64,000 nucleotides of DNA, taken from positions 27,308 to 91,307 of IMG/VR virus record IMGVR_UViG_3300005573_000006; one strand, given 5' to 3'. The notes below the pieces were generated by a model. That model was not told the DNA's origin, ran no database searches, and saw only the letters and a list, made by a program, of their open reading frames with translations. The stretch is from a virus. Of the stretch, positions 2,837-57,616 are shown in pieces. Both the position numbers and the translations under genes were made by a program. The first letter of the stretch is position 1, and each line of letters opens with the position of its first letter.

Positions 2837-5800
2837 TTATGCTATTAAATTATTTTCTGCGACCAGGAATTCACCAGCAGCGCCTCCGCCTCCTCCACCA
2901 GCCTGATTATTTGCTCCAGCGGTACCACCAGATCCTCCAGTAAGACCACTACTACCATTTTGGGCTGCGCCTGAACCAACATATCCTCCATTACCACCCT
3001 TACCATTCAATCCACCGCCACCTCCGCCACCTGTTCCACCCCACGAGCTTCCAATAGTACCACCATCACCTCCGTTGCCACCCGTTACGATATAAGTTCC
3101 AGTATTAGCAGTAAGGGTTCTATATAAAATTAAAATATGTCCTCCCGCTCCTCCACCTCCACCACCGCTAGCTTCACCCCATGCACTTGTTCCATTTGCC
3201 CCATTCCCTCCAGAAGCATCTATTGTTCCTGTAATATTTAAACTATCATTACACTCTATTAATAAAGCCCCGCCGCCCCTTCCTCCTGCTCCGCTGGGTG
3301 CATTAGTGGATCCGCTTCCGCTACCGCCACCAGGGCCAGATGTAAATTCAACAAATTTTCTATAATTTCTTGATGCTTTAAAAGGATAAAGCCCTGAAAT
3401 ACTAAATTGGACACCACCGGCGCCAACGACTGCTCCGCCACTAGTTCCCCCAACCCCGCCTCTTCCCGCTACAAGGGCTGTGTCAAGCATATCTCTATGT
3501 GCTAAACCTTCATTACCATTACCTGTTGACGATGCTCCACCCTTGCCTCCTAAATTTCTTAAATCAATAGCTCTTGTGGCTGATGATGTAATCGTTACAT
3601 TACCCTTTGATTTAAGAACAATCTTCGTTCCGTTGTTGTGAGGATTACTAAAAGTAAGAGCACCAGTTCCACTTATCGTTATACTTGTATAATTCTTTTC
3701 AAAATATTCTGCTCCACCTAAATCAATATTTGTTGTTCCAGAAGTAATACTTAATGCCCCGTCAGAACCATTGCCGCCAAAAGTTGCTTTTCCTAATGTC
3801 GGAACATTATCGGCAAATACTTCAAGAATACCAGCAGAATTATCCCATTTAGCGTAGTTTCCAGTAGTCTCATTGCCCATAATTACATCTCCAACATCGG
3901 TTCCTCCGACCATTGCTTTAAACACATTATCCCCGGCATTATCAATTACTTGTATTCCAGTATTGGTATCTGGAAAGATACGAACTCTTGCTCCTGAAGA
4001 CGCCGAGTCATAAGTTCCACCGACTTTTGCTGTTTTGGTAGTTGGGTCGTATCCAGAATCAAAAGTTGTAGCTCCGCTTATTGTAATATTATCAGCATCA
4101 ATCTTAATTCCTTCTGTCGAAGCGTTAATTGAAGCAATTACATTTGTTGTTTGTACTGGGGTGAAGTTAAGTTGTGAAAGGGTTACTGTATTTGTTGATA
4201 TTTGTCCTCCATCTATTTTGGTTAAATCGCCTGTTTTTCTCCAATTAGAAAGATAAGTTGTGCCGTCTATTAAGACTTTTGAGCCAGCAATACTTAATAT
4301 ATTATCCGAAGTAATAGTATTTGTCGCTATTTCATTAGAAGTAATAGTTCCGGCGTGAATATTCCCAGCCACAATAGTATTAGCTGCAATTTCATTAGAT
4401 GTAATAGTAGCAGCGGCAATTTGCGCATTAGTGATAGAACGATTTTCAATATCTCCGCCAGTTATCGCAACTCCACCAGACCCTCCAAATACTTGAAAAG
4501 TGGCTTCTGTGGTTGATTTTTGCGCTACCGCTATTAAAACCTTTCCATCTCCAACCGCATTAGTGGCAGTGGTTGTTATTTGGTAAGCAGTAGTTGAAAC
4601 TGCAATATCTAAATAAATATAAGTTATTGCAGTCATATTGCCGGTATTGCCCGCTGAAATAGAATACGAAGTTCCTGCCGCGGTTGTAAAAGTTCCAGCT
4701 CCCCAACTAACAGTATCTGCATCGGTAGAACTAAATACGCAAGTTTGCGTCCATCCCTGAGAAGCAATGTTAGTATCGCTTGAAACTACATTTCTTGGAG
4801 TAGCCGATGCTACTGTTGAAAACGAAGCCGACACATTGCCCGAAGTATCTACTGCTTTAACCCAGTAATAATAAATCTGACCGCCAGTTCTTCCTCCGTC
4901 TATAAAATAATTGGTTCGGCAATTTCCTATCAAAGTGGCAGTCTCGCTATTGTTTGTTGTATTTCTGTAGATATTATACGAAGCTAAATCGCTTTCGGTG
5001 TTATGTGTCCACTGAACTATCACATATTGTATTCCAGCTGTTGCTGAAACTCCCGTAACGGTAGCCGGAGCAGTTGAATCAGAAGGGGTTGTTTGTATAA
5101 TATCAGATGAAAAAGCTGAAGATGTCCCGTATTTATTTACCGAACAAACACCGAAGTTATACGAAACATTAGGCGTTAATCCTTCAATAGTTATTGTGTT
5201 CGTAGTGGCTGGAATATAGGTGTAATAAGTAAGTGCCGCTTTCTTATATCTAACCAAATAGTGGTCAAAAGTGTTTGAAGAAATCGCATTCCAAGTAAGA
5301 ACGACATAGGCCGATTGCGAACCGTCCGAACCTGTTGAAATACCACCAGTGGAATATGTTAATCCGGTAGGAACGCTATCTGCGGTTGAAGTGGCAACAT
5401 AACTTATTTGAGTTCCGGTTATTCCGGCAATCGTAGATGTTCCGTCTATTACACCTCCAGTAATATTTATACTAGAAAACGTGGCATCACCATTACTAGA
5501 TATTTTTGCTGGTGCAGAATCAAATGTTGCTGCTCCAAGCCACATATTACCATTTATGTCAACATGGAAAGAAGTAGAATCAGAACCTCCTATATCTATT
5601 GTACTGGCAGATAATGCTCCAGAAAAAGTACCACTATTAAATTCAACATCTCCGTTTTCGTCTATTTTCCATCCGTCACTTCCGGATTTATAGTTTGGGG
5701 ACATTATAGAAGAACTAGTGGTTTGATATGGTGCCGCATTTTTAATATTTAAAATCTGGTCCTCTAATAAGGATACTCTTTTTTCAAGCAATACTGTTTT

Positions 5801-22419: not shown

Positions 22420-23772
22420 TCAATAATATGTTCTTTTATTCGGACGAATAACAAAATTACTACTGTCCAAACCAATGCCTAATGGCTCCTCATTTAATTT
22501 CCAACATGCAAGAGCTAATGAGTTTAAACAATCATCTTTTCTTGAAGAACCATATATTATATTCCCGCTTGGAGAAAAACGATATGAAAAAGACCTTATT
22601 TCTTGTATTAATTGGGGAATACGTGGAAAAGATATTTTATTTCTATCCATTAATATCGCAAGTTTATCTATTAACAATCTTTTACTTTTATTAGTATAAA
22701 CAAAATCTACATCAACGTTTGCTCCCATGTTTTTTAAATCTTCAGAAAATATATCACCACCATTTCCTGTAGCATCTAAAATAATTTCTGCATTATTGTA
22801 CTTTTGAGATATATCTTTAATTTTCGCTCTCATAAATTGCCATGATAAATTGTTTGCCCTATAAAAACCAACAACCCTATGCGTCATTCTATCCACAACG
22901 GTAGCAACAGTAAAATCTTCTATCTTTGCAATATCACATCCTAAAAAATATAAATGACCCGGTATAGGAGTTTCAAACCATTCATTTGGATCATCTACAA
23001 TTATACTATCATCTATACACTGATCAAACTTTTTAAATCTTTGCCCAGCGCCTTCTTTAAATTCACCTAAATATTCTGAAACCCAAATATCCCTCGGAGT
23101 AGCCGCCTTAATATTTCTTAGTTCTTCTACACTCACAGCATATGGATTGTTAGTTCCGATAACTTCTCCATTCTCGTCTTCAATAGCTGTAGGAAAAGAA
23201 AAAGAAATATATTCAGGATGTTCTACTCTTCCTTCTGGTGTCCCCCATAAATATTTCTCATAAAACCAATTATATCCAAATGGATTAGATATTAAAAATG
23301 CCCTACCATTTTTATCTATAAGATTTGGACGAATATAACCATCCCATATACCATCATCTATTCTGGCCGCTTCATCCATAATAGCTAAATCTAGTCCTTT
23401 ACCGAGTAACGACTCGGTTGTTTCAGAAGTTTTCATCCATAATTTTGCTCCGGTTACATTGTTTTCAATAATACGATCATGTTTATTAACTCTAAAAGGG
23501 CCCTGTTCGCCAGCAAAATATCTATCAATCCATTCTTCTATATAATCCCAGACACGGGAAGCAAGTTCATAATTAGGGCCAATTATCCACACAGTATGTC
23601 TTGGCATCCACATTTCTCTTAATCCCAAATATGCGGCTAAAAAAGTTTTCCCGAGCCTTTTTGCCGAGGCAACTACAGTAAAACGCCCCATATTCTGAAG
23701 TATATATTTCTGAACAGCATGAGGATGAAAATTTATTTTTTGTTTTATTGCCGCAAAACTAATACTCTTCAT
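22420..23772 (-). CDS. terL: Terminase large subunit
   Basis: PHAVQ adenine-binding motif, KRLGKT Walker A, LAIMDEAA Walker B, ISNPFG, GCDIAK..DFT RNase H-like nuclease, DDCLNSLALA. Confidence 0.95.
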   Translation of the reverse strand: MKSISFAAIKQKINFHPHAVQKYILQNMGRFTVVASAKRLGKTFLAAYLGLREMWMPRHTVWIIGPNYELASRVWDYIEEWIDRYFAGEQGPFRVNKHDRIIENNVTGAKLWMKTSETTESLLGKGLDLAIMDEAARIDDGIWDGYIRPNLIDKNGRAFLISNPFGYNWFYEKYLWGTPEGRVEHPEYISFSFPTAIEDENGEVIGTNNPYAVSVEELRNIKAATPRDIWVSEYLGEFKEGAGQRFKKFDQCIDDSIIVDDPNEWFETPIPGHLYFLGCDIAKIEDFTVATVVDRMTHRVVGFYRANNLSWQFMRAKIKDISQKYNNAEIILDATGNGGDIFSEDLKNMGANVDVDFVYTNKSKRLLIDKLAILMDRNKISFPRIPQLIQEIRSFSYRFSPSGNIIYGSSRKDDCLNSLALACWKLNEEPLGIGLDSSNFVIRPNKRTYY

Positions 23773-36327: not shown

Positions 36328-36519
36328 ATGGACAAATGGTATATAATTAAAGACGGATCCGAATATGTGGTAAAATATAAAGATAAAAATGACGGAAAAC
36401 TTTACCATATATCTCCGTTTTTTAAATCAAGACTCATGGCTATTATTCATGCATATATTAGTCGTCGGGTTCTTAGGTCGAAAGGACTTGATGTAAAAAT
36501 AATAAAATATTGCATATGA
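36328..36519 (+). CDS. Hypothetical protein
   Basis: Likely start MDKWY after AAGGA. Confidence 0.55.
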   Translation: MDKWYIIKDGSEYVVKYKDKNDGKLYHISPFFKSRLMAIIHAYISRRVLRSKGLDVKIIKYCI

Positions 36520-36722
36520 ACTATCCAAAAATAAAAAAGTATATAGAAATTACTTATCCTGAAAAAATAAGAGAACTAATAGATTATTTAGATTCTTTAG
36601 AATTTGAAAAAGATGTAAAAAAGATATTACAGGATCAGTATAAAGTTAATGAACCATTATCTGAAGAATTCGCCGCGACCTGCTGTATTGACAGAAGGGC
36701 AGACGAAATTTCAGATTTTTAG
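36516..36722 (+). CDS. Hypothetical protein
   Basis: ATGA overlap. Confidence 0.55.
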   Translation: MNYPKIKKYIEITYPEKIRELIDYLDSLEFEKDVKKILQDQYKVNEPLSEEFAATCCIDRRADEISDF

Positions 36723-36725
36723 AAT

Positions 36726-37796
36726 ATGCCATCAAATAAACTAATATACGAAAAAATAAATCTTGGAGCTGATCCCGAGCTTTTTATAGCAAATAAAAAG
36801 GGCGTTATTGGATCAGAAAAATTATTACCAAAAGAAGGTATATTAACAGAAGGAGGCAAAATAATAAGAGATGGTGTTCAACTAGAAATTAATCCACAAG
36901 CGGCCACATGCAGAGAGATTTTAGCAAGAAATATTAAAGACTGTTTTCTGACAATAAGAAGACAACTTGCAAAAAAAGAATTGTTATATATAAACTTTAA
37001 AGAAGTTGTAGAAGTTTCAGAAAAAGAAATGAAAACATTAAGTGAGGATTCAAAAGTATTTGGATGTGCTCCAAGCAATAATATTTATACCGGGAAAAGT
37101 ATAATCAAAGTTGATCCAAGAGTTTATAGATACAGAAGTGCAGGTGGACATATACATCTAGGAAAATGGACCGAAAAAATGATTGGGGTATACGAAGAAC
37201 TCAGTAAAATACAAACGGCCATAAACAAGGCATTAGAAGATCCAAAAAGAACAGTGCCAATGTTGGATTTAATAGTTGGAAACACTTGTGTATTAGTTGA
37301 CAGAGATCCATTGGCAAAAGAAAGAAGAAAAGTATATGGTAAAGCAGGAGAATTTAGAACTCCGCCACACGGAATAGAATATAGAACGCTGTCTAATTTT
37401 TGGTTAAAAAGTTACCCGTTAATGTCGTTTGTAATGGGGTTGGCAAGACTAGCAGTATTAATTGTGGCCAATGATAAAGATAAAAAATTAATGTCTGAAG
37501 TAAAAATAGAAAATGTGGCAAAAGCTATAAATGAAAATGATTTTGAACTGGCTTATAAAAACTTTAAGAAGATAGAAAAACCGCTTTTAGATATGATTCC
37601 CGAAGATTATGATAATAATATTCCGCTTGCAAGCACAACAATAAAAGAGTTCAAACATTTTCTGACAAAAGACTTATCAGACTGGTTTAAAACAGATCCA
37701 ATGGATCATTGGTGTAATTTAGATATTGGAGATGCTAATAGTTATGGATGGGAGAACTTTTTAAAGATAAAAGTTCATGATGATATGATGAAATAA
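36726..37796 (+). CDS. phiEco32-like COOH-NH2 ligase (type 2 amidoligase)
   Basis: LGADPELF, DGVQLEINP, FGCAPS, RSAGGHIHLG, RRKVYGKAGEFR, GIEYRTLSNFW. Confidence 0.9.
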   Translation: MPSNKLIYEKINLGADPELFIANKKGVIGSEKLLPKEGILTEGGKIIRDGVQLEINPQAATCREILARNIKDCFLTIRRQLAKKELLYINFKEVVEVSEKEMKTLSEDSKVFGCAPSNNIYTGKSIIKVDPRVYRYRSAGGHIHLGKWTEKMIGVYEELSKIQTAINKALEDPKRTVPMLDLIVGNTCVLVDRDPLAKERRKVYGKAGEFRTPPHGIEYRTLSNFWLKSYPLMSFVMGLARLAVLIVANDKDKKLMSEVKIENVAKAINENDFELAYKNFKKIEKPLLDMIPEDYDNNIPLASTTIKEFKHFLTKDLSDWFKTDPMDHWCNLDIGDANSYGWENFLKIKVHDDMMK

Positions 37797-37857
37797 ACCC
37801 ACTTTTCAATTTTAGAGACAAACATCAACTTGTGCAGATGCGAATGCACAAATAAAT

Positions 37858-38208
37858 ATGGATATAAACGGACTTGATTGTTGTGGAATTGTAGAAATAA
37901 ACGGATTAAGTAATACCAGCCCCAAAAATGCACTCATAGAAATATGTATAGATAGTAATATAGATGAAAATGCAGGAGTAAATTTTGCATTTGTTCTTTT
38001 TACGGGAGTTGTTAAACATGGATATGGACAAAGATTCAAAAAATATTTATTAGAACATAGACTCGGTAATGTTATTGAAACAAGGACAAAAATAAATCCG
38101 AACTCTGGAAACGAAATAAGGGCATGGATTTGGGAAATAGACCAGAAGGCATTAAGTCGCTGGTATGAAAAAAATAAACCAAAAAATTACGAAGAAAACA
38201 ATTGGTGA
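37858..38208 (+). CDS. Hypothetical protein (CCG motif; NPNSGN)
   Basis: 116 aa, preceded by a hairpin (TTGTGCA/TGCACAA). Confidence 0.7.
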   Translation: MDINGLDCCGIVEINGLSNTSPKNALIEICIDSNIDENAGVNFAFVLFTGVVKHGYGQRFKKYLLEHRLGNVIETRTKINPNSGNEIRAWIWEIDQKALSRWYEKNKPKNYEENNW

Positions 38209-38340
38209 AAAGATAACAAAACAAAGATTTTTGTGTTAAGGTATTGTGGTAGCACCCCACATTTTATAAGTGCGTTTTGACAGAAAAATTAGGGGGTCTC
38301 CAGTATGTATAAAGAGAATAGCAAAAGACACATTCAACGC

Positions 38341-38386
38341 CTGTGCACAACTTACTATTGCAAAAAAAACAAAAATCTGTTATACT
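38341..38386 (+). promoter_or_regulatory. Box-coupled promoter for the tRNA/ncRNA operon
   Basis: CTGTGCACAACT-N5-TTGCAA-N17-TATACT with extended TG. Confidence 0.7.
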
Positions 38387-38461
38387 TGAGCTGTAAATTA
38401 AAAAGTATATAAAATAACACAAATCGCCCTTTTGTCAAGAATAGAAGAAGAAATAAAAGAT

Positions 38462-38530
38462 CGCGGCTTGGTGTAATGGTAACACGTGAGGTTCATATCC
38501 TCAAGATCACGTTCAAATCGTGGGCCGCAA
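38462..38530 (+). tRNA. tRNA-Met (CAT), initiator-like C1:A72 mismatch, short T-stem, no encoded CCA
   Basis: Acceptor CGCGGCT/GGCCGCA, D-arm GTGT-AATGGTA-ACAC, anticodon arm TGAGG-TTCATAT-CCTCA, T-arm CACG-TTCAAAT-CGTG. Confidence 0.85.
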
Positions 38531-38539
38531 CATCAAATA

Positions 38540-38923
38540 AATATTGTAGTTAATGTTTGTTGTAAATATGTTGCTAGTTATAGTAACATAAATTAACAGA
38601 AAAACACTACAATATTAGATTGATAAATAGTTTTCATGTTCCATGTTAGGGCATCGCCCGTTATTGGCTGATTACTATTTAGTCCATGTTAAACTGATGT
38701 TCCGTTATATTTGTTGTAAAATAAATATATCTACATTAGTTTAACCGGTGAGAAGCACAAGAAGCAGGAAAACATAGAAGAACTGCGAATGTTACTTCTC
38801 CGGTATTGTCCGGATAAAAAACTGCTTGTGCTTCAATACTAGACATTAAACATATCTGTTCGTTGCGTGTTATTCAATTCATGATGGACCGAACGAAGTT
38901 TACAAATGATATATTTGATGTCT
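38540..38923 (+). ncRNA. Array of five consecutive long irregular hairpins
   Basis: Stems at 38540-38616, 38624-38681, 38688-38745, 38752-38834 and 38841-38923, separated by 6-7 nt; no plus-strand ORF in the track. Confidence 0.6.
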
Positions 38924-38951
38924 GATATTGGAATATAGAACATTTACAATA

Positions 38952-39308
38952 AAAGAATGTTTTAACCTCCGTCTGTGGCTGAAGAACCCTGATATGGAAC
39001 GGGGTAAGGCACGACGAAACTAACAAAGGGAGTTAACAAGGGTTAGAAGTAGTCGGTATACTGACAAAATAATTACTTATTCCTAAAACATGCCTCCAAA
39101 AACTGAATGAGGCAGTAGCGGTTAATACTGTAATACACGGAATGCATAACGGTATTATGGTATGCTACTTTGGATAAAAAAACGAGCACTTCGTAATCCC
39201 TTTTTAGATGGTGGGCCATCTAAACAAGAAAATATAAAAGCTGATAAAGTGCTTGAGTATTGGGATATAGACAGGAGTTGTCCCCAGACGGAGATTAAAG
39301 CATTCTTT
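38952..39308 (+). ncRNA. Large (~357 nt) structured RNA of unknown family
   Basis: ~23-bp closing helix AAAGAATGTTTTAA-C-CTCCGTCTG / CAGACGGAG-A-TTAAAGCATTCTTT enclosing at least 7 helices and 2 potential pseudoknots. Confidence 0.7.
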
Positions 39309-39331
39309 AGTAAAGAAATATAAAAGCAATT

Positions 39332-39517
39332 ATGAAAGAAGAAATTAAAAAAAAATATGACGAAGCAATGAAAGAAATGGAGTGTTGGGAAACCCAAAAG
39401 CATTTGAAGAATTGTAAGAAGTGTCAAGAAACAATAAGACAAATTTTAACTCCTAATCAACTTCAGAAGTTAAAAGATGCTATAAGTATTTTAAGTCAAA
39501 TTATTAAGACAAATTAA
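39332..39517 (+). CDS. Hypothetical protein (C..H..CxxC)
   Basis: 61-aa ORF after the ncRNA. Confidence 0.6.
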   Translation: MKEEIKKKYDEAMKEMECWETQKHLKNCKKCQETIRQILTPNQLQKLKDAISILSQIIKTN

Positions 39518-39662
39518 ATAATGAAAAGAGGTTAAAAAAAATAATAAAAGTTGCTATAATATAACCAGTTCTTAATCCCGTAGTTCGGGATAAGGATCAC
39601 CCATCCAAATGAGCTAGGTCTCGCCAACTCCATATCAAAGAGTTGGCAATTTTATAAAAGAT

Positions 39663-40496
39663 ATGAAAAAAATTATAGCCATTACATCTGGAGAAAAGAA
39701 TAAATTAAAACCATATATTGAAGCGTTTACTACTCCGGATACAATTCCTGTATTAATTCCAACATTTAACCTGTCTGAAGAAGAAATAGAGAATGAAGAA
39801 ACCTCTAATAAACTATTAAATATAGCAGAAAAAATAGCAGATAAGTTAGATGCATTAGTTTTATCTGGTGGTGAAGATATTAATCCAATAAACTATGGAC
39901 AAGATAATATTGCCGCAACAGGATGTAATAATTCAAGAGATAAAACAGAAGTGGCATTAGTAAATGCTTTTTCTAAAAGAAACAAACCTATCTTGGGTAT
40001 TTGTAGAGGACACCAAATATTAGGACTAATGTATGGATTAAACTATTTCGCCCAAGACCTAACAAAAGTAAGAGAACTACATAATGGAAATATTGCTGGT
40101 CTAAAAGATCGGAAAGAACCAGTCCACACTGTTTATGTATGGGGAAGTTATGCGGAATGGCTAAAAAAGAAAGGATATAAACAAAACGGAAATTTTATGA
40201 AAATGAATGTAAATTCATGGCATCATGAAGGTTTTGTGTTTCTGCCAAAAAGTATGGGAAGAATAAAAGAAAATAACCTTGCAGATTTTATTGAAAATTT
40301 TACAAAAGATACAGATTTAGAAATTATATTATCTACAAAAGCGGTAATAGAAGGATTTAGATCAATAACAAAACCGATATTAAGTTGCCAATACCATGCA
40401 GAAAGTTATCCAAAAAGCATATTTATAAAATACTTTCTTGAAGAATATGTATTAAAAAATGGGCCAAAAAATAGGTCGGTCGAAACAAAAAAATAG
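39663..40496 (+). CDS. Class I glutamine amidotransferase, peptidase C26 (PuuD-like gamma-glutamyl hydrolase)
   Basis: LVLSGGEDINP, PILGICRGHQ nucleophile elbow, VNSWHH, CQYHAE. Confidence 0.9.
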   Translation: MKKIIAITSGEKNKLKPYIEAFTTPDTIPVLIPTFNLSEEEIENEETSNKLLNIAEKIADKLDALVLSGGEDINPINYGQDNIAATGCNNSRDKTEVALVNAFSKRNKPILGICRGHQILGLMYGLNYFAQDLTKVRELHNGNIAGLKDRKEPVHTVYVWGSYAEWLKKKGYKQNGNFMKMNVNSWHHEGFVFLPKSMGRIKENNLADFIENFTKDTDLEIILSTKAVIEGFRSITKPILSCQYHAESYPKSIFIKYFLEEYVLKNGPKNRSVETKK

Positions 40497-40515
40497 TAAT
40501 ATTATAAAATAATAC

Positions 40516-40701
40516 ATGAAATATAAAGTAAAAGTATTAGTTGGGAAAGCATTTGAATGTGAAGTAGAAGCAGAAAACGAAGAAGAGGCCGAAGATAAAG
40601 CGGTATTATTGGCAAAACAAGATTATGAAGAAAAGGGAATAGAAAATGCAGATTTTTTTGTTGATAGTGTTGTTAATACAGAAGAGGAGAAATTTGAATA
40701 A
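40516..40701 (+). CDS. Small acidic protein (EVEAENEEEA, DpnD/PcfM-like)
   Basis: MKYKVKV...EVEAENEEEAEDKA. Confidence 0.75.
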   Translation: MKYKVKVLVGKAFECEVEAENEEEAEDKAVLLAKQDYEEKGIENADFFVDSVVNTEEEKFE

Positions 40702-40707
40702 AATAAC

Positions 40708-40731
40708 AGGGCCGAATAGAAATTCGGCCCT
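40708..40731 (+). terminator. GC-rich hairpin / terminator
   Basis: AGGGCCGAAT/ATTCGGCCCT. Confidence 0.6.
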
Positions 40732-40841
40732 TTAGCATATTTGTGAGGAGAGAGTTTAAAATGACAAAGAATCTTTTTTATGACCAAAAAGATTCAAAAT
40801 TTATAGGCCCGGATATCATCTCTCCTCATAAGTATATTAAA
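40731..40841 (+). ncRNA. Rod-shaped RNA with a large central internal loop
   Basis: TTTAGCATATTTGTGAGGAGAGA/TCTCTCCTCATAAGTATATTAAA closing stem, 15/23-nt bubble, GAATCTTTTT/AAAAAGATTC apical stem. Confidence 0.5.
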
Positions 40842-40878
40842 TAACCACATCTGTATTTATACAGATGTTTATAAACCA

Positions 40879-41910
40879 ATGTGCGGAATAGCATTTGTCA
40901 TGCGGAAAAACAAACATAATGCTAATAAAAGAATAAAACAACTATATTTTGCCCAGAAAAACAGAGGAACTGAAGGTTATGGATTCTTAAATATAAATAC
41001 ATTACAATGTTTTAGAGCAAAATATGAACATCAAATATTAAGTTTATTAGCAAAGAATAAAGCATCAGAAATTTTGTTTCATCATAGACGACCAACAAGT
41101 ACGGATAATACTCCAGAAACCGCACATCCAATATATTCAGGCAATAATTTTATAAATAAATATTATTTAGTTCATAATGGTACTATATCAAATGATCAAC
41201 AGTTATATGATAAACATACAAAACTTGGACTAAAATATTCTACATTTATCGGAAAAGACAAATACGGTATTCCAATATTTAACGATAGCGAATGTTTGTT
41301 ATTAGAACTCGGATTATATCTTGAAGGAAAACAAGAAAAATTAGAAACAATAGGTTCAGTAGCATTTGTTTTATTAGAAACAGACAAGAATAATACGCCA
41401 TTAAATTTATATTATGGAAGAAATTATGCAAGCGACTTAAAGTTTTTAGATACCGATACCGAAATGATTATTTCTTCAGAAGGAAATGGTAATTATATAG
41501 ATGTTAATGAACTAAATATTTATTGTTATAAAACAAAAGAATTTTCTAAAAAGAAACTGGAGTTTAAGAGAACGTCCTATCTTTATTATGAAAAAAATTA
41601 TTCATATAATAAAAACTACGATAATATAAATTTAACTAATGAAAAAGATGATTCTTCACCAATAGAACATAAAACAGACATTCAGACGGAATCGGATTTC
41701 TTGCAAGAACTAACAGATGAAGAGTTACAAGAGTATAAACAAGACGCAGAAGGACAAATAGAAGTGGCAACTATGTCATTACTTAAAACAAATGATAGAA
41801 ACGAGGGAGATAGACTTCAAGAAGAAAAAAGGGAAGCTCAAGAATTTTTAAATGAAATAAACAAAGAAATAAAAAGAAGGTCGGAGAACAAGAAAAAACT
41901 TTTGTGTTAA
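40879..41910 (+). CDS. Class II (Ntn) glutamine amidotransferase
   Basis: MCGI N-terminal Cys, RGTEGYG, HHRRPT, AHP, VHNGTI, NDSE. Confidence 0.9.
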   Translation: MCGIAFVMRKNKHNANKRIKQLYFAQKNRGTEGYGFLNINTLQCFRAKYEHQILSLLAKNKASEILFHHRRPTSTDNTPETAHPIYSGNNFINKYYLVHNGTISNDQQLYDKHTKLGLKYSTFIGKDKYGIPIFNDSECLLLELGLYLEGKQEKLETIGSVAFVLLETDKNNTPLNLYYGRNYASDLKFLDTDTEMIISSEGNGNYIDVNELNIYCYKTKEFSKKKLEFKRTSYLYYEKNYSYNKNYDNINLTNEKDDSSPIEHKTDIQTESDFLQELTDEELQEYKQDAEGQIEVATMSLLKTNDRNEGDRLQEEKREAQEFLNEINKEIKRRSENKKKLLC

Positions 41911-41914
41911 ATAT

Positions 41915-42325
41915 ATGTTTAGCAAAAAATTTATAAAACGACTCCTCCGTCATCCAGAAATGGCTAAATGTCCGGATTGTAGATACAAAATGGTTAGAAG
42001 GGGTAATTATTTTATATGTGAAAATATAAATTGTGGAACTGGTATAGATATATCGGATTTTTATTTAACCGCAGGAGGTAAATTCAGAAAAAGAAATCCT
42101 ACCGTAGATGAATATAAAAATACAGAAGATAAAAAAGAGACTATTTTTGTAATGAATAGATTTAAATTAGAAGATAAACCGTATAAAATAAACGAAACCT
42201 CTAGTTATAATCCGGTAACAAGACAATTATTTATAAACAATAATGAAATACCAGAAAATATTACAGATGAAACAAAACATTTAGAATTAATAGAAACTAT
42301 TCAAACAATATTAAATGCCAAATAA
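41915..42325 (+). CDS. Zn-ribbon protein
   Basis: CPDC...CENINC. Confidence 0.65.
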   Translation: MFSKKFIKRLLRHPEMAKCPDCRYKMVRRGNYFICENINCGTGIDISDFYLTAGGKFRKRNPTVDEYKNTEDKKETIFVMNRFKLEDKPYKINETSSYNPVTRQLFINNNEIPENITDETKHLELIETIQTILNAK

Positions 42326-43685
42326 CATAACCGAAAACAACATAACCGCATCGGAGATACTATCATGGTGGGAAACGGCAAGGCAGTTAGTAAATAGAAC
42401 GCAATCAATTAATAACAAAACACAAAAAAGATCAAATATTAAAAAAATGGTAACTTTTGATAAATGTTTTGATTGTTTAGAAAAACTCGGAGAAGAACAG
42501 TTTATTTATGAAAACCATGTTTACTGTAAAGAATGTTATAATAATAAAATACAAGAATGTGGTCGATGTCATCAGAAAGAAAAAAATAAAAATAACTTTA
42601 TAAATGCAGTAATAGAAGAAGGTGAAAAACAAACAAAAATAGTATTATGTCCAGATTGTATAAGATTATTACAATTACAAAAATGTAGTTTTAATAATTG
42701 TCCAATTTTCTTTAAAAAAGATCAAAAACTTTTATGTGAATTATGTAATAAATATTACTGTAAAGTTCATATAAACGGTCACAATTGTTCCATTGGAGAA
42801 CCAACATTTTTGTATCATCGTTATAGTAGTCAAAAACAAACAGGAAGTATTGAAAAAGCCAAATTTATAAAAAACAAACGACATGTCGGAATAGAATTAG
42901 AATGTGTAAATGGAAACCCTAATAAATTAAAAGACAATGAATTAGATAGAAGAATTGGTGTTGGACACGATGGATCCGTAAGAGGAATGTGGCCATTAGA
43001 AATACAAACACCACCAGCAAGTGCCAGTAAACTAGAAGATATTATATTTCATGTAACAAAAACATTGCGGTTAGCCGGTTACAAAGTAAATAAAAGCTGT
43101 GGAGTTCATATACATATTGACAGTGAAGATTTCCGTGACGATCCTGTAAAAATATTCAATATTATATCATTATATTATGCGGTTGAACCGCTTATTTATG
43201 CAATGTTACCGGAATCCAGAAAAAATAATAAATATGCTCTTCCATTAAGTAATTGGATAGATGCACCAAAGATGATGACGCTTGCCCGTAAAAGGATGAC
43301 ACTTGACGAATTAGAAAAAGAATGGTTTAAGGCAAGAAGTAACAGCGAAGTAAGTAGATATAAAGGAAACAAATATGATAGTAGTCGTTATCATGGTTGT
43401 AATTTACATTCATTGTTTGCTTATGGACACATAGAAATACGGTATCATCACGGAACACTAAATGCAACAAAACTTATAAACTGGATAAACTTACATTTAT
43501 TATTAATAGACTGGGCAGTAAATAAATATAACAAAAATGTTATTGATGCACTTCTTGCAACAGACAAACCATTAATAAAATTAAGACTTCTAGTAAGACA
43601 TTTAGGAATGGACAATGTATTAAGACGTTATATAATACGTAGATTAAAAAAGTTTTCAAATTCTAATATAGAAGATATTGAATAA
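42315..43685 (+). CDS. Putative amidoligase (Amidoligase_2) with Cys-rich N-terminus
   Basis: GIELEC, HDGSV, LEIQTPP, NKSCGVHIHI, RYHGCN, IEIRYHHGT. Confidence 0.9.
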   Translation: MPNNITENNITASEILSWWETARQLVNRTQSINNKTQKRSNIKKMVTFDKCFDCLEKLGEEQFIYENHVYCKECYNNKIQECGRCHQKEKNKNNFINAVIEEGEKQTKIVLCPDCIRLLQLQKCSFNNCPIFFKKDQKLLCELCNKYYCKVHINGHNCSIGEPTFLYHRYSSQKQTGSIEKAKFIKNKRHVGIELECVNGNPNKLKDNELDRRIGVGHDGSVRGMWPLEIQTPPASASKLEDIIFHVTKTLRLAGYKVNKSCGVHIHIDSEDFRDDPVKIFNIISLYYAVEPLIYAMLPESRKNNKYALPLSNWIDAPKMMTLARKRMTLDELEKEWFKARSNSEVSRYKGNKYDSSRYHGCNLHSLFAYGHIEIRYHHGTLNATKLINWINLHLLLIDWAVNKYNKNVIDALLATDKPLIKLRLLVRHLGMDNVLRRYIIRRLKKFSNSNIEDIE

Positions 43686-43703
43686 ACAGAAAGGAAATAT
43701 ACT

Positions 43704-44708
43704 TTGTGTGGAATACTTTACCTAAAATCAAATAATGGACAACCTGTTGGTAAATATGCAGAAATTGTCTATCAATACCAAAAAAATAGAGGCCAGAATG
43801 GGTGGGGAATGGTAGAGGTTAAAAAAGACAAGATAACTGTTAGTAGATTCACAAAAGAAAATGATGCCGTAAAAGCATTAAAAGAATCAAATGCTCCAGA
43901 AATATTGTTTCACAACAGATTTCCGACAAGCACAAACAATACAGTTAAGACAAATCACCCTATTGTATCAATAAATCCAGCATATAAACATAATTATTAT
44001 TTTATACATAACGGTATAATAGGAAACGATTTACAGTTAAAAATAGATCATGAAAAACTTGGAATAAAATATAATACAGTAGAAGATTATAGGTTTAATG
44101 ACAGCGAATCATTGATGCATGAATTAATATTGATTATAGAAGGAATAAAAAAGCCAGAAGAGTTTGCAGCAAAAGGATCTTTGGCGTTTATTATGCTACA
44201 AACAGACAAAACAGACCATGCAGAAGCGTTGTATTATGGCAGATGGGGAAATCCGTTAAAATTTACAAATATAAAAGGAATGATGGTATTAAGATCTGAG
44301 TGTCCCAAAACAGAAGATATAGAAGAAAACAAATTATTTAGATATGATTATAAGAAAAAAACTATAACATGTCAAGATATTATGTTTGGAGAAAGAGTTA
44401 AGTTATTACAACTTCCACAAAACAAAAAACAACCAAAGAAAATTGATACAGACATAACAAAATTTACAGAAGTAATTAAACTATTGTATGGACACCAATA
44501 TATAAACGAAACATTGCTCAAAAATATTGGACGTAATGAAATGGCTCTTCTGTTAGTAGCCGCAAGAAAAATTAAAAGAGAATTACAATTACAAATGGAA
44601 TCTGCAATAATCAATAATAAAGATATATCAGACGAAATTTGGCCAAAAATACATTATGATAGAGCAGTTTTTAATCTGTCAACAATTAATGATTTTATTA
44701 AAGAATAA
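43704..44708 (+). CDS. Class II (Ntn) glutamine amidotransferase, second paralog
   Basis: TTG start with AAGGA SD; MCGI, RGQNGWG, HNRFPT, NHP, IHNGII, NDSE. Confidence 0.9.
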   Translation: MCGILYLKSNNGQPVGKYAEIVYQYQKNRGQNGWGMVEVKKDKITVSRFTKENDAVKALKESNAPEILFHNRFPTSTNNTVKTNHPIVSINPAYKHNYYFIHNGIIGNDLQLKIDHEKLGIKYNTVEDYRFNDSESLMHELILIIEGIKKPEEFAAKGSLAFIMLQTDKTDHAEALYYGRWGNPLKFTNIKGMMVLRSECPKTEDIEENKLFRYDYKKKTITCQDIMFGERVKLLQLPQNKKQPKKIDTDITKFTEVIKLLYGHQYINETLLKNIGRNEMALLLVAARKIKRELQLQMESAIINNKDISDEIWPKIHYDRAVFNLSTINDFIKE

Positions 44709-57156: not shown

Positions 57157-57463
57157 ACATTTAGAAAAATATTATTTTAAAAAGGGAGATAATAAAAAAC
57201 CAAAAAAATTATTTTGGGATAAAGACTGGTTAGAAAAAGAAATGAAAACTAAATCAGTTTCTCAAATTGCTAAAGAACAAGGAGCAGGCCGACATGCAAT
57301 ATATAAATGGATAAGAAAATATTTTGGACCTAAAGAAAAGGGATTTTGTATAAAATATTGGTGGGATACTAATAAAAAACAATTTTCGGTAACCCTACAT
57401 CAAGACGGTATAATTGTAAATAGTGGTCACTTTAAACAAGAGACATCCCCTATGCCAAGTTAA
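57143..57463 (+). CDS. HTH DNA-binding protein
   Basis: KSVSQIAKEQGAGRHAIYKWIRKY. Confidence 0.7.
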   Translation: MKQIKHLEKYYFKKGDNKKPKKLFWDKDWLEKEMKTKSVSQIAKEQGAGRHAIYKWIRKYFGPKEKGFCIKYWWDTNKKQFSVTLHQDGIIVNSGHFKQETSPMPS

Positions 57464-57616
57464 CAGTTTAAAAAGCAAGGAAATACGCCATTTTTTGAAG
57501 CATAAATTTGGTTATAAGTATCATTTATCGTCTTTTTAACCAAAAAATTAAAAAAACCAATAAAATCAAGGATTTTTGAAGTATTAAAAAATTGTTGACT
57601 TGGCGTAAAAAAAAAT

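Follow-up and report, generated by a model that had tools for sequence, protein, structure and literature searches.

A folded non-coding RNA of about 357 nt with an end-to-end closing helix in a phage genome, from a family absent from Rfam 15

Few natural RNAs longer than 300 nt have a conserved, many-branched fold, and most of those that are understood are ribozymes, ribonucleoprotein cores or self-assembling RNA cages. ROOL and GOLLD are about 580-800 nt in size. The species 1 and 2 RNAs of T4 and the RNAs of T5 are stable RNAs of unknown function, 100-140 nt long and far simpler. ROOL, GOLLD and OLE are reported to form homo-oligomers in a cryo-EM study (PMC12286853). Y RNAs of the YrlA type are defined by the motif GNCGAAN0-1G in the 5' strand of the terminal stem, by tRNA-like T/D arms and by a Ro60 gene (PMC4201824). 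The locus described here, at positions 38952-39308 (+) of a 64,000-nt stretch of viral DNA (the window), is a real gene for a folded non-coding RNA of about 357 nt, and this RNA belongs to a family absent from Rfam 15. The family is rare, with three members in the collections searched, all of them in phage genomes.

The locus and its predicted structure

The virus record is 91,307 bp long and has direct terminal repeats; the window covers its bases 27308-91307. A run search showed that two hot-spring metagenome DNA runs matched the window DNA and may be its source; among the runs matching this DNA, no RNA run was listed. Reads of the two runs yielded only short, spurious pieces at the locus, with no coverage of the RNA. 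The RNA was located inside an 800-nt gene-free gap and was present as a single copy in the phage genome. A tRNA-Met gene (38461-38531), found with both Rfam and ARAGORN, was located 420 nt upstream, and the space between the tRNA and the RNA was filled by a series of long hairpins (38540-38923). On the other side, a 61-aa ORF (39332-39517), whose start codon was 23 nt from the end of the RNA, and a gene for a C26-type glutamine amidotransferase (GATase, 39663-40496) lay within a phiEco32-like COOH-NH2-ligase/amidoligase cluster. The closest homologues of the GATase were P0002 (66% identity) and P0003-P0007. Elsewhere in the window, a 19-pair long-range helix with a span of 157 nt (57451-57607) was found in a 460-nt gene-free gap (57157-57616) and is possibly a further end-clamped element; folded in full, the gap was no more stable than shuffled sequences (z -1.47).

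The region 38952-39308 had been proposed from its letters as a multi-helix RNA with a terminal helix of about 23 bp, and all the strings quoted in that earlier note were present at the positions given for them. The terminal helix was confirmed as 23 pairs, consisting of 14 pairs, a C.A mismatch and 9 pairs, and it was the top-scoring long-range helix of the 91-kb genome on either strand. The minimum free energy (MFE) of the + strand was -111.3 to -111.9 kcal/mol (z -6.46, range -6.1 to -6.5), and none of 100 shuffled sequences folded as well; the - strand of the region reached -97.8 kcal/mol (z -4.97). The region was non-coding, with no ORF common to the family members or related elements.

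No Rfam 15 family matched the RNA at the gathering score or at E ≤ 10 except the neighbouring tRNA, and the best other matches in the region 38400-39700 were eukaryotic miRNA/snoRNA models (E 0.037-6), far below the thresholds. The earlier failure to recognise RNase P, tmRNA or group I/II intron signatures agreed with this search, in which none of these gave a match at E ≤ 10. The models of ROOL, GOLLD, OLE, HEARO, raiA, Y RNA and the self-cleaving ribozymes did not reach their gathering thresholds, and the two homologues described below had no Rfam match either. ARAGORN detected no tmRNA and no tRNA-like part in the RNA, only the separate tRNA-Met. Nothing in the INPHARED phage collection matched the region by blastn. 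The hammerhead, other self-cleaving motifs and a bulge-helix-bulge site were rejected by the Rfam search (E ≤ 10) and by inspection of the sequence.

Homologues and the conserved fold

The first homologue, G002:22456-22790(-), was found by a genome-wide scan for long-range helices in the phage G002 (IMGVR_UViG_3300014204_000170). A pattern taken from its closing helix led to the second, L312:3611-3946, on a 7-kb contig from a sister phage, with neighbouring proteins 61-85% identical. These two RNAs were about 85% identical. RNAalifold of the pair gave 103 base pairs, 16 of them with changes at both positions and 6 with a change at one; no pair was broken, and slid controls had 0-2 double changes. 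The covariance model R2 was trained on these two sequences only, with the window sequence left out. R2 matched the window at 38949-39311 from model position 1 to 348 with 62 bits, on the + strand only, and the ends of the match were at most 3 bases from those in the earlier note. The E-value was 1.9e-19 in a 6-kb search with no filters and 7.9e-18 in 242 kb; both are rough values from a shortened calibration. Beyond this match, R2 found nothing at E ≤ 1 when 1.5 Mb of further phage and metagenome loci were searched, among them L059, L060 and the remaining G002 elements (see below), and a search of another 45 whole phage records had no match at E ≤ 0.01; the window match was therefore specific.

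Other searches gave no further members. No related loci were found with single neighbouring proteins as queries, and none of the 57 distant loci found with a DnaE-type polymerase query had similarity to the RNA. A metagenome scan with the GATase alignment gave, among the matches listed, only generic C26 amidotransferases. A loose motif scan returned 120 chance matches, in which the best closing helix was 13 bp.

The three members were aligned to the R2 model (alignment A10). Standard pairs accounted for 98% of 299 cells, compared with about 40% when the partners were slid, in an alignment fitted to the model structure, which inflates pairing. Both sides were changed in 56 of the 103 pairs, compared with 5-9 in slid controls and 0 in 500 shuffles; most of this covariation came from one deep comparison, since two of the three members are about 85% identical. 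As expected for a functional RNA fold, the window and G002 sequences agreed less often in paired columns (37% identity) than in unpaired ones (57%). With no Rfam match, a model from two phages that matched the window RNA from end to end and strong covariation, the proposal that this is a new class of large, structured non-coding RNA is supported.

The conserved fold of the family, which is about 335-357 nt in size, has about 14-16 helices and nine branch points. A 20-23-bp helix joins the two ends; inside it come a domain of hairpins at the 5' side, a core of several hairpins closed by an inner long-range helix, and a hairpin at the 3' side. The features of the window copy are as follows, all on the + strand.

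38922..38950 (+), weak promoter-like site CTGATA-17-TACAAT with 9/12 matches, which is the chance level for the region; it ends 1 nt before the RNA
38952..38975 (+), 5' strand of H1 (P1), 23 pairs with 39285-39308 and one C.A mismatch; pair probability 0.9-1.0, with 13 of 20 consensus pairs changed on both sides and 0 broken
38978..39010 (+), H2 (38978-80/39008-10, 2 compensated pairs) enclosing H3 (38986-91/39000-05, ACCCUG/CGGGGU, 3 compensated pairs), in the free MFE and the consensus
39012..39055 (+), H4 (CGAC/GUCG) closing the window-only insertion 39016-39051, from the model alignment; 100% paired, 2 compensated pairs
39058..39065 (+), 5' strand of H6, the inner long-range helix closing the central domain, partner 39253-39260; 5 of 8 pairs compensated, absent from the free MFE of the window
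39068..39081 (+), H7, small hairpin AAUA/UAUU of the consensus; 100% paired, 2 compensated pairs
39091..39114 (+), H9, hairpin UGCCUC/GAGGCA with the conserved loop GAAU, in the MFE (probability about 1.0) and the consensus
39115..39168 (+), long hairpin of H10 and H11, in the MFE and the consensus; 3 + 8 compensated pairs
39172..39199 (+), H12 (GGAU/AUCC) of the consensus around a small hairpin (H13 region); 100% paired, 2 compensated pairs
39202..39227 (+), H14, hairpin UUAGAUGG/CCAUCUAA with the conserved loop GGU(R)GG, in the MFE (probability 0.9) and the consensus; 5 compensated pairs
39228..39252 (+), A-rich single-stranded junction with the conserved block AAAAUAUAAAAGC, from conserved unpaired columns
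39253..39260 (+), 3' strand of H6, consensus helix
39262..39284 (+), H16, 3' hairpin GGGAU/GUCCC, in the MFE and the consensus; 5 of 5 pairs changed on both sides
39285..39308 (+), 3' strand of H1 (P1), partner of 38952..38975

Eight consensus helices (H1, H2, H3, H9, H10, H11, H14 and H16) were also present at homologous places in the window's own MFE structure, and five (H4, H6, H7, H12 and H13) were missing from it and were taken from the family model only. When constrained to the consensus, the window sequence had a free energy of -90.1 kcal/mol, 21 kcal/mol less stable than the free MFE. The unpaired conserved blocks were GUG..UGAA after H1, GAAU in the H9 loop, UGCA at the tip of H11, GGU(R)GG in the H14 loop and the A-rich AAAAUAAAAGC junction; near-identical counterparts of the blocks of the AAAAUAUAAAAGC junction were found in G002 and L059. 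The window copy differed by a longer H9 loop and by the 36-nt insertion, which replaced hairpin H5 and had no homologous columns in the other members. A scan of the unpaired columns detected no tertiary pairing kept in all three members.

The helices listed in the earlier note were compared with this consensus. Six stood as parts of the conserved fold, namely the terminal helix, ACCCTG/CGGGGT, TGCCTC/GAGGCA, GTAGC..GCTAC with its long hairpin, TTAGATGG/CCATCTAA and the 3' hairpin described as GACA/TGTC, whose conserved stem is GGGAT/GTCCC enclosing GACA/TGTC. Two clashed with the consensus: AAGTAGT/ATTACTT competes with the covarying H4, H6 and H7, and GAGCACTT/AAGTGCTT competes with the covarying H6. 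CTAAC/GTTAG is located in the window-only insertion, where a fold through CUAAC/GUUAG is possible. Two pseudoknots, on which the idea of a ribozyme had been based, were not conserved. The pairing AAAGGGA/TCCCTTT uses the window-only insertion, TCCAAA/TTTGGA uses the window-only part of the H9 loop, and both overlap H12; about 3.8 complementary pairs of 7-mers and about 16 of 6-mers are expected by chance at this composition.

Other helix-closed RNAs of related phages

In IMG/VR, the phages G001 and G002 carried the sole full-length relatives of the GATase. The window phage, G001 and G002 had only about ten genes in common, yet the ligase/GATase/Ntn-amidotransferase module (window 36726-44708) was kept in all three at 34-44% identity, a sign that its genes may travel or be retained together. 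L309 (JAQUSH010000070.1, 4 kb), a contig binned as Candidatus Aenigmatarchaeota that ends before the region equivalent to the RNA locus, also contained this COOH-NH2 ligase and Ntn-amidotransferase module; it is probably a viral contig misplaced in an archaeal MAG.

Directly upstream of the GATase homologues, both G001 and G002 contained an element of 254-270 nt with a closing helix of 19-24 bp: L059:4450-4719 (+) in G001 and L060:4111-4364 (+) in G002. The spacing to the preceding ORF was 6-9 nt and that to the following ORF 8-18 nt; the G002 element started 6 nt after an RtcB gene. Their 5' 110 nt aligned with each other (z 4.35), and the closing helices kept every pair through six double and two single changes. 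They shared the 11-mer GAAACGUAAUC and had no Rfam match. These elements form a second helix-closed RNA family, different from that of the window RNA. A kinship with the window RNA was not supported: the alignment scores were no higher than those of shuffles, MAFFT gave no alignment, the model R1 built from L059 and L060 did not find the window RNA, and a common 'GAAAC..UAA' motif considered as a sign of homology was not significant. The window RNA and these elements share only the genomic position and the design of the closing helix; since the three phages have so few genes in common, the presence of helix-closed RNAs at this spot is not a matter of chance.

The closing helix of the homologue G002:22456-22790(-) resembled that of the L060 element, and the L059 helix was also related. 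In G002, the elements 22456-22790(-) and 43915-44168(+) had unrelated interiors, and 15 of 19 closing-helix bases were the same (..GUGURUAARGUUCUGGG). The closing clamp may be a sequence-specific recognition or processing cassette. An RNA island at 29.8-38.2 kb of G002 (L185:9853-18173) contained at least 21 tRNA genes followed by four helix-closed elements (36445-36627, 36638-36893, 37369-37513 and 37924-38173) with closing helices of 21-27 bp and no Rfam match. Starting 8 nt after the GATase-adjacent RNA of G002, a 32-codon hydrophobic ORF (L060:4373-4468, +) likely encodes a small membrane peptide. In G001, a 486-aa protein with DUF2828, DUF7788 and vWA domains (L059:1093-2553, +) was encoded 2 kb from the RNA and may be a Ro60-like RNA-binding protein; a sequence search against solved structures gave no support for Ro60 likeness.

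Gene contexts, role of the RNA and known systems

The window RNA precedes the amidoligase/GATase module, while the G002 and L312 copies belong to a late lysis/structural operon, where a lysozyme-like gene lies on one side and a gene for an acidic protein on the other, with flanking ORFs 150-390 nt away. No neighbouring protein was common to the window copy and the G002/L312 copies. An identical and stronger promoter-like site, TTGACA-17-TG-n-TACACT, was found 18-28 nt upstream of P1 in both G002 and L312, and the window copy had no convincing promoter; no simple intrinsic terminator was found at any of the three members. About 140 nt past the RNA in L312, a 40-codon ORF (L312:4082-4204, +) follows a strong AAGGAGG ribosome-binding site; its product is a basic peptide rich in cysteine, and a GC-rich 10-bp long-range stem (about 3955-4050) is located ahead of it. 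No match to RtcB, TROVE or DUF2828 was found anywhere in the 91-kb genome of the window phage, and an RNase III gene was not encoded by these phages. No reverse transcriptase gene (RVT_1) was matched in G000, G001 or G002, for which reason a retron msr-msd RNA was rejected.

The differing gene contexts with no shared protein neighbour argue for an autonomous RNA. From the lack of a constant neighbour, the promoter-like sites and the absence of RtcB, TROVE, DUF2828, reverse transcriptase and RNase III genes, we infer an RNA that acts in trans. On balance, the locus is rather likely to be a stand-alone, trans-acting structured RNA gene with clamped ends and a core that serves as a binding platform, and not the leader of one gene. 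The closing helix would clamp both ends to give a discrete, nuclease-resistant unit, and it might double as an RNase III-type processing site upon read-through from neighbouring genes. The folded core with its conserved loops and junctions would bind a protein encoded elsewhere and act as a scaffold, or alternatively it could bind a second copy of the RNA through the palindromic apical loop of H11.

On this last option, the family would be a new class of ornate RNAs that associate with themselves, with the H11 palindrome as a kissing-loop dimerisation site and an RNA-only dimer or higher assembly as the product. The 10-nt apical loop of H11, the one concrete pointer to a binding partner, contains the 6-nt palindrome AUGCAU in the window and CUGCAG in the other two members, so that self-complementarity is kept through the switch; the same covariation fits an intramolecular closing pair equally well. 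Such an assembly, suggested by the loop sequence, is possible but rather unlikely.

A cis-acting element, either a structured leader or an intercistronic processing or stability element for the 61-aa ORF and the GATase/amidoligase genes, would explain why the window RNA ends 23 nt before a start codon without a terminator of its own, and why G001 and G002 carry different helix-closed RNAs at the same place upstream of the GATase. However, the true homologues are in another operon with unrelated neighbours, distant ORFs and a promoter-like site of their own. In addition, a closing helix of 20-23 bp is too stable for a switch, and the conservation covers the entire 16-helix core, beyond a mere 3' expression platform. 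A role in cis has little likelihood for the window RNA.

The stand-alone RNA gene favoured above was also compared with a Y-RNA-like partner of an RNA-repair or quality-control particle of the Ro60/RtcB type, encoded in a phage RNA island beside a tRNA. Y RNAs also have a long stem formed from the two ends (PMC4201824), the tRNA-Met is close by, the positionally equivalent RNA of G002 follows RtcB by 6 nt, and G001 encodes RtcB in addition to the DUF2828/vWA protein 2 kb from its RNA. Against this, the RtcB-adjacent RNA is of a different family that R2 did not detect, and the window phage lacks genes for RtcB, TROVE and DUF2828. The window RNA is three times as long as the characterised Y RNAs (80-130 nt, PMC4201824), and it fails each defining feature of YrlA-type Y RNAs in that study: a regular-expression search found no GNCGAAN0-1G in the RNA or its relatives, the RNA contained no GTTCRA-type T loop, T-loop-like arm or tRNA-like part, and for the Ro60 gene, taken as a TROVE gene within about 4 kb on the same strand, none was present in the whole genome. 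This makes a Y-RNA-like partner very unlikely.

A new self-processing or otherwise catalytic RNA appeared highly improbable. The size, the nine branch points and the conserved unpaired nucleotides are within the range of known large ribozymes, and RtcB, which seals ribozyme-type ends, adjoins a helix-closed RNA in one related phage. However, no known ribozyme family matched, no conserved pseudoknot or tertiary pairing and no evident substrate or splice junction was found, and RtcB is missing from the window phage.

When eight closing helices from these phages were read along the local genes, the transcribed strand showed 16 G.U pairs and 3 A.C mismatches, an excess that is unlikely if the repeats mattered only as DNA (binomial p about 0.002 by our own arithmetic); as G.U pairs were permitted in the scan, the count carries some ascertainment bias. 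A miniature inverted-repeat mobile element or another site with terminal inverted repeats acting as DNA, to which the 23-bp terminal inverted repeats and the G002 pair of elements on opposite strands in different contexts might point, is scarcely credible given this G.U excess, the covarying internal helices, the strand-specific model match, the single copy in the window phage and the absence of a visible target-site duplication.

Among known systems, the T4 species 1 and 2 RNAs and the T5 RNAs are likewise phage-encoded beside tRNA genes, and the window RNA is longer and more complex. RNase P RNA and tmRNA resemble it in their size of about 350-400 nt, a terminal helix joining the ends, a multi-branched core and a tRNA nearby, but it matched neither model (E ≤ 10), was not called as a tmRNA by ARAGORN and has no conserved pseudoknot. 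The Y RNAs (YrlA/YrlB, Yrn1) share the end-to-end long stem around a structured module and the location in a phage RNA island near a tRNA (PMC4201824), as well as the RtcB or vWA protein near the helix-closed RNAs of related phages. The different end-clamped RNAs at one spot before the amidoligase/GATase module point to a wider class of helix-closed phage RNAs, and for the family of the window RNA, a 16-helix model and a search model able to recover more members are now available. ROOL, GOLLD and OLE (Rfam RF03087, RF01998; PMC5737381, PMC12286853), ornate RNAs of bacteria and phages, are also large multi-branched non-coding RNAs with mainly structural conservation and an association with phages and tRNAs. 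They are the closest kind to the window RNA, which is a member of none of them: it matches no Rfam model, and its family is smaller (335-357 nt) and closed by the end-to-end helix. Its self-complementary H11 loop could, by its sequence, support self-association as well, and if this loop does pair copies, the RNA would be a compact and possibly heat-stable subject for structural work.
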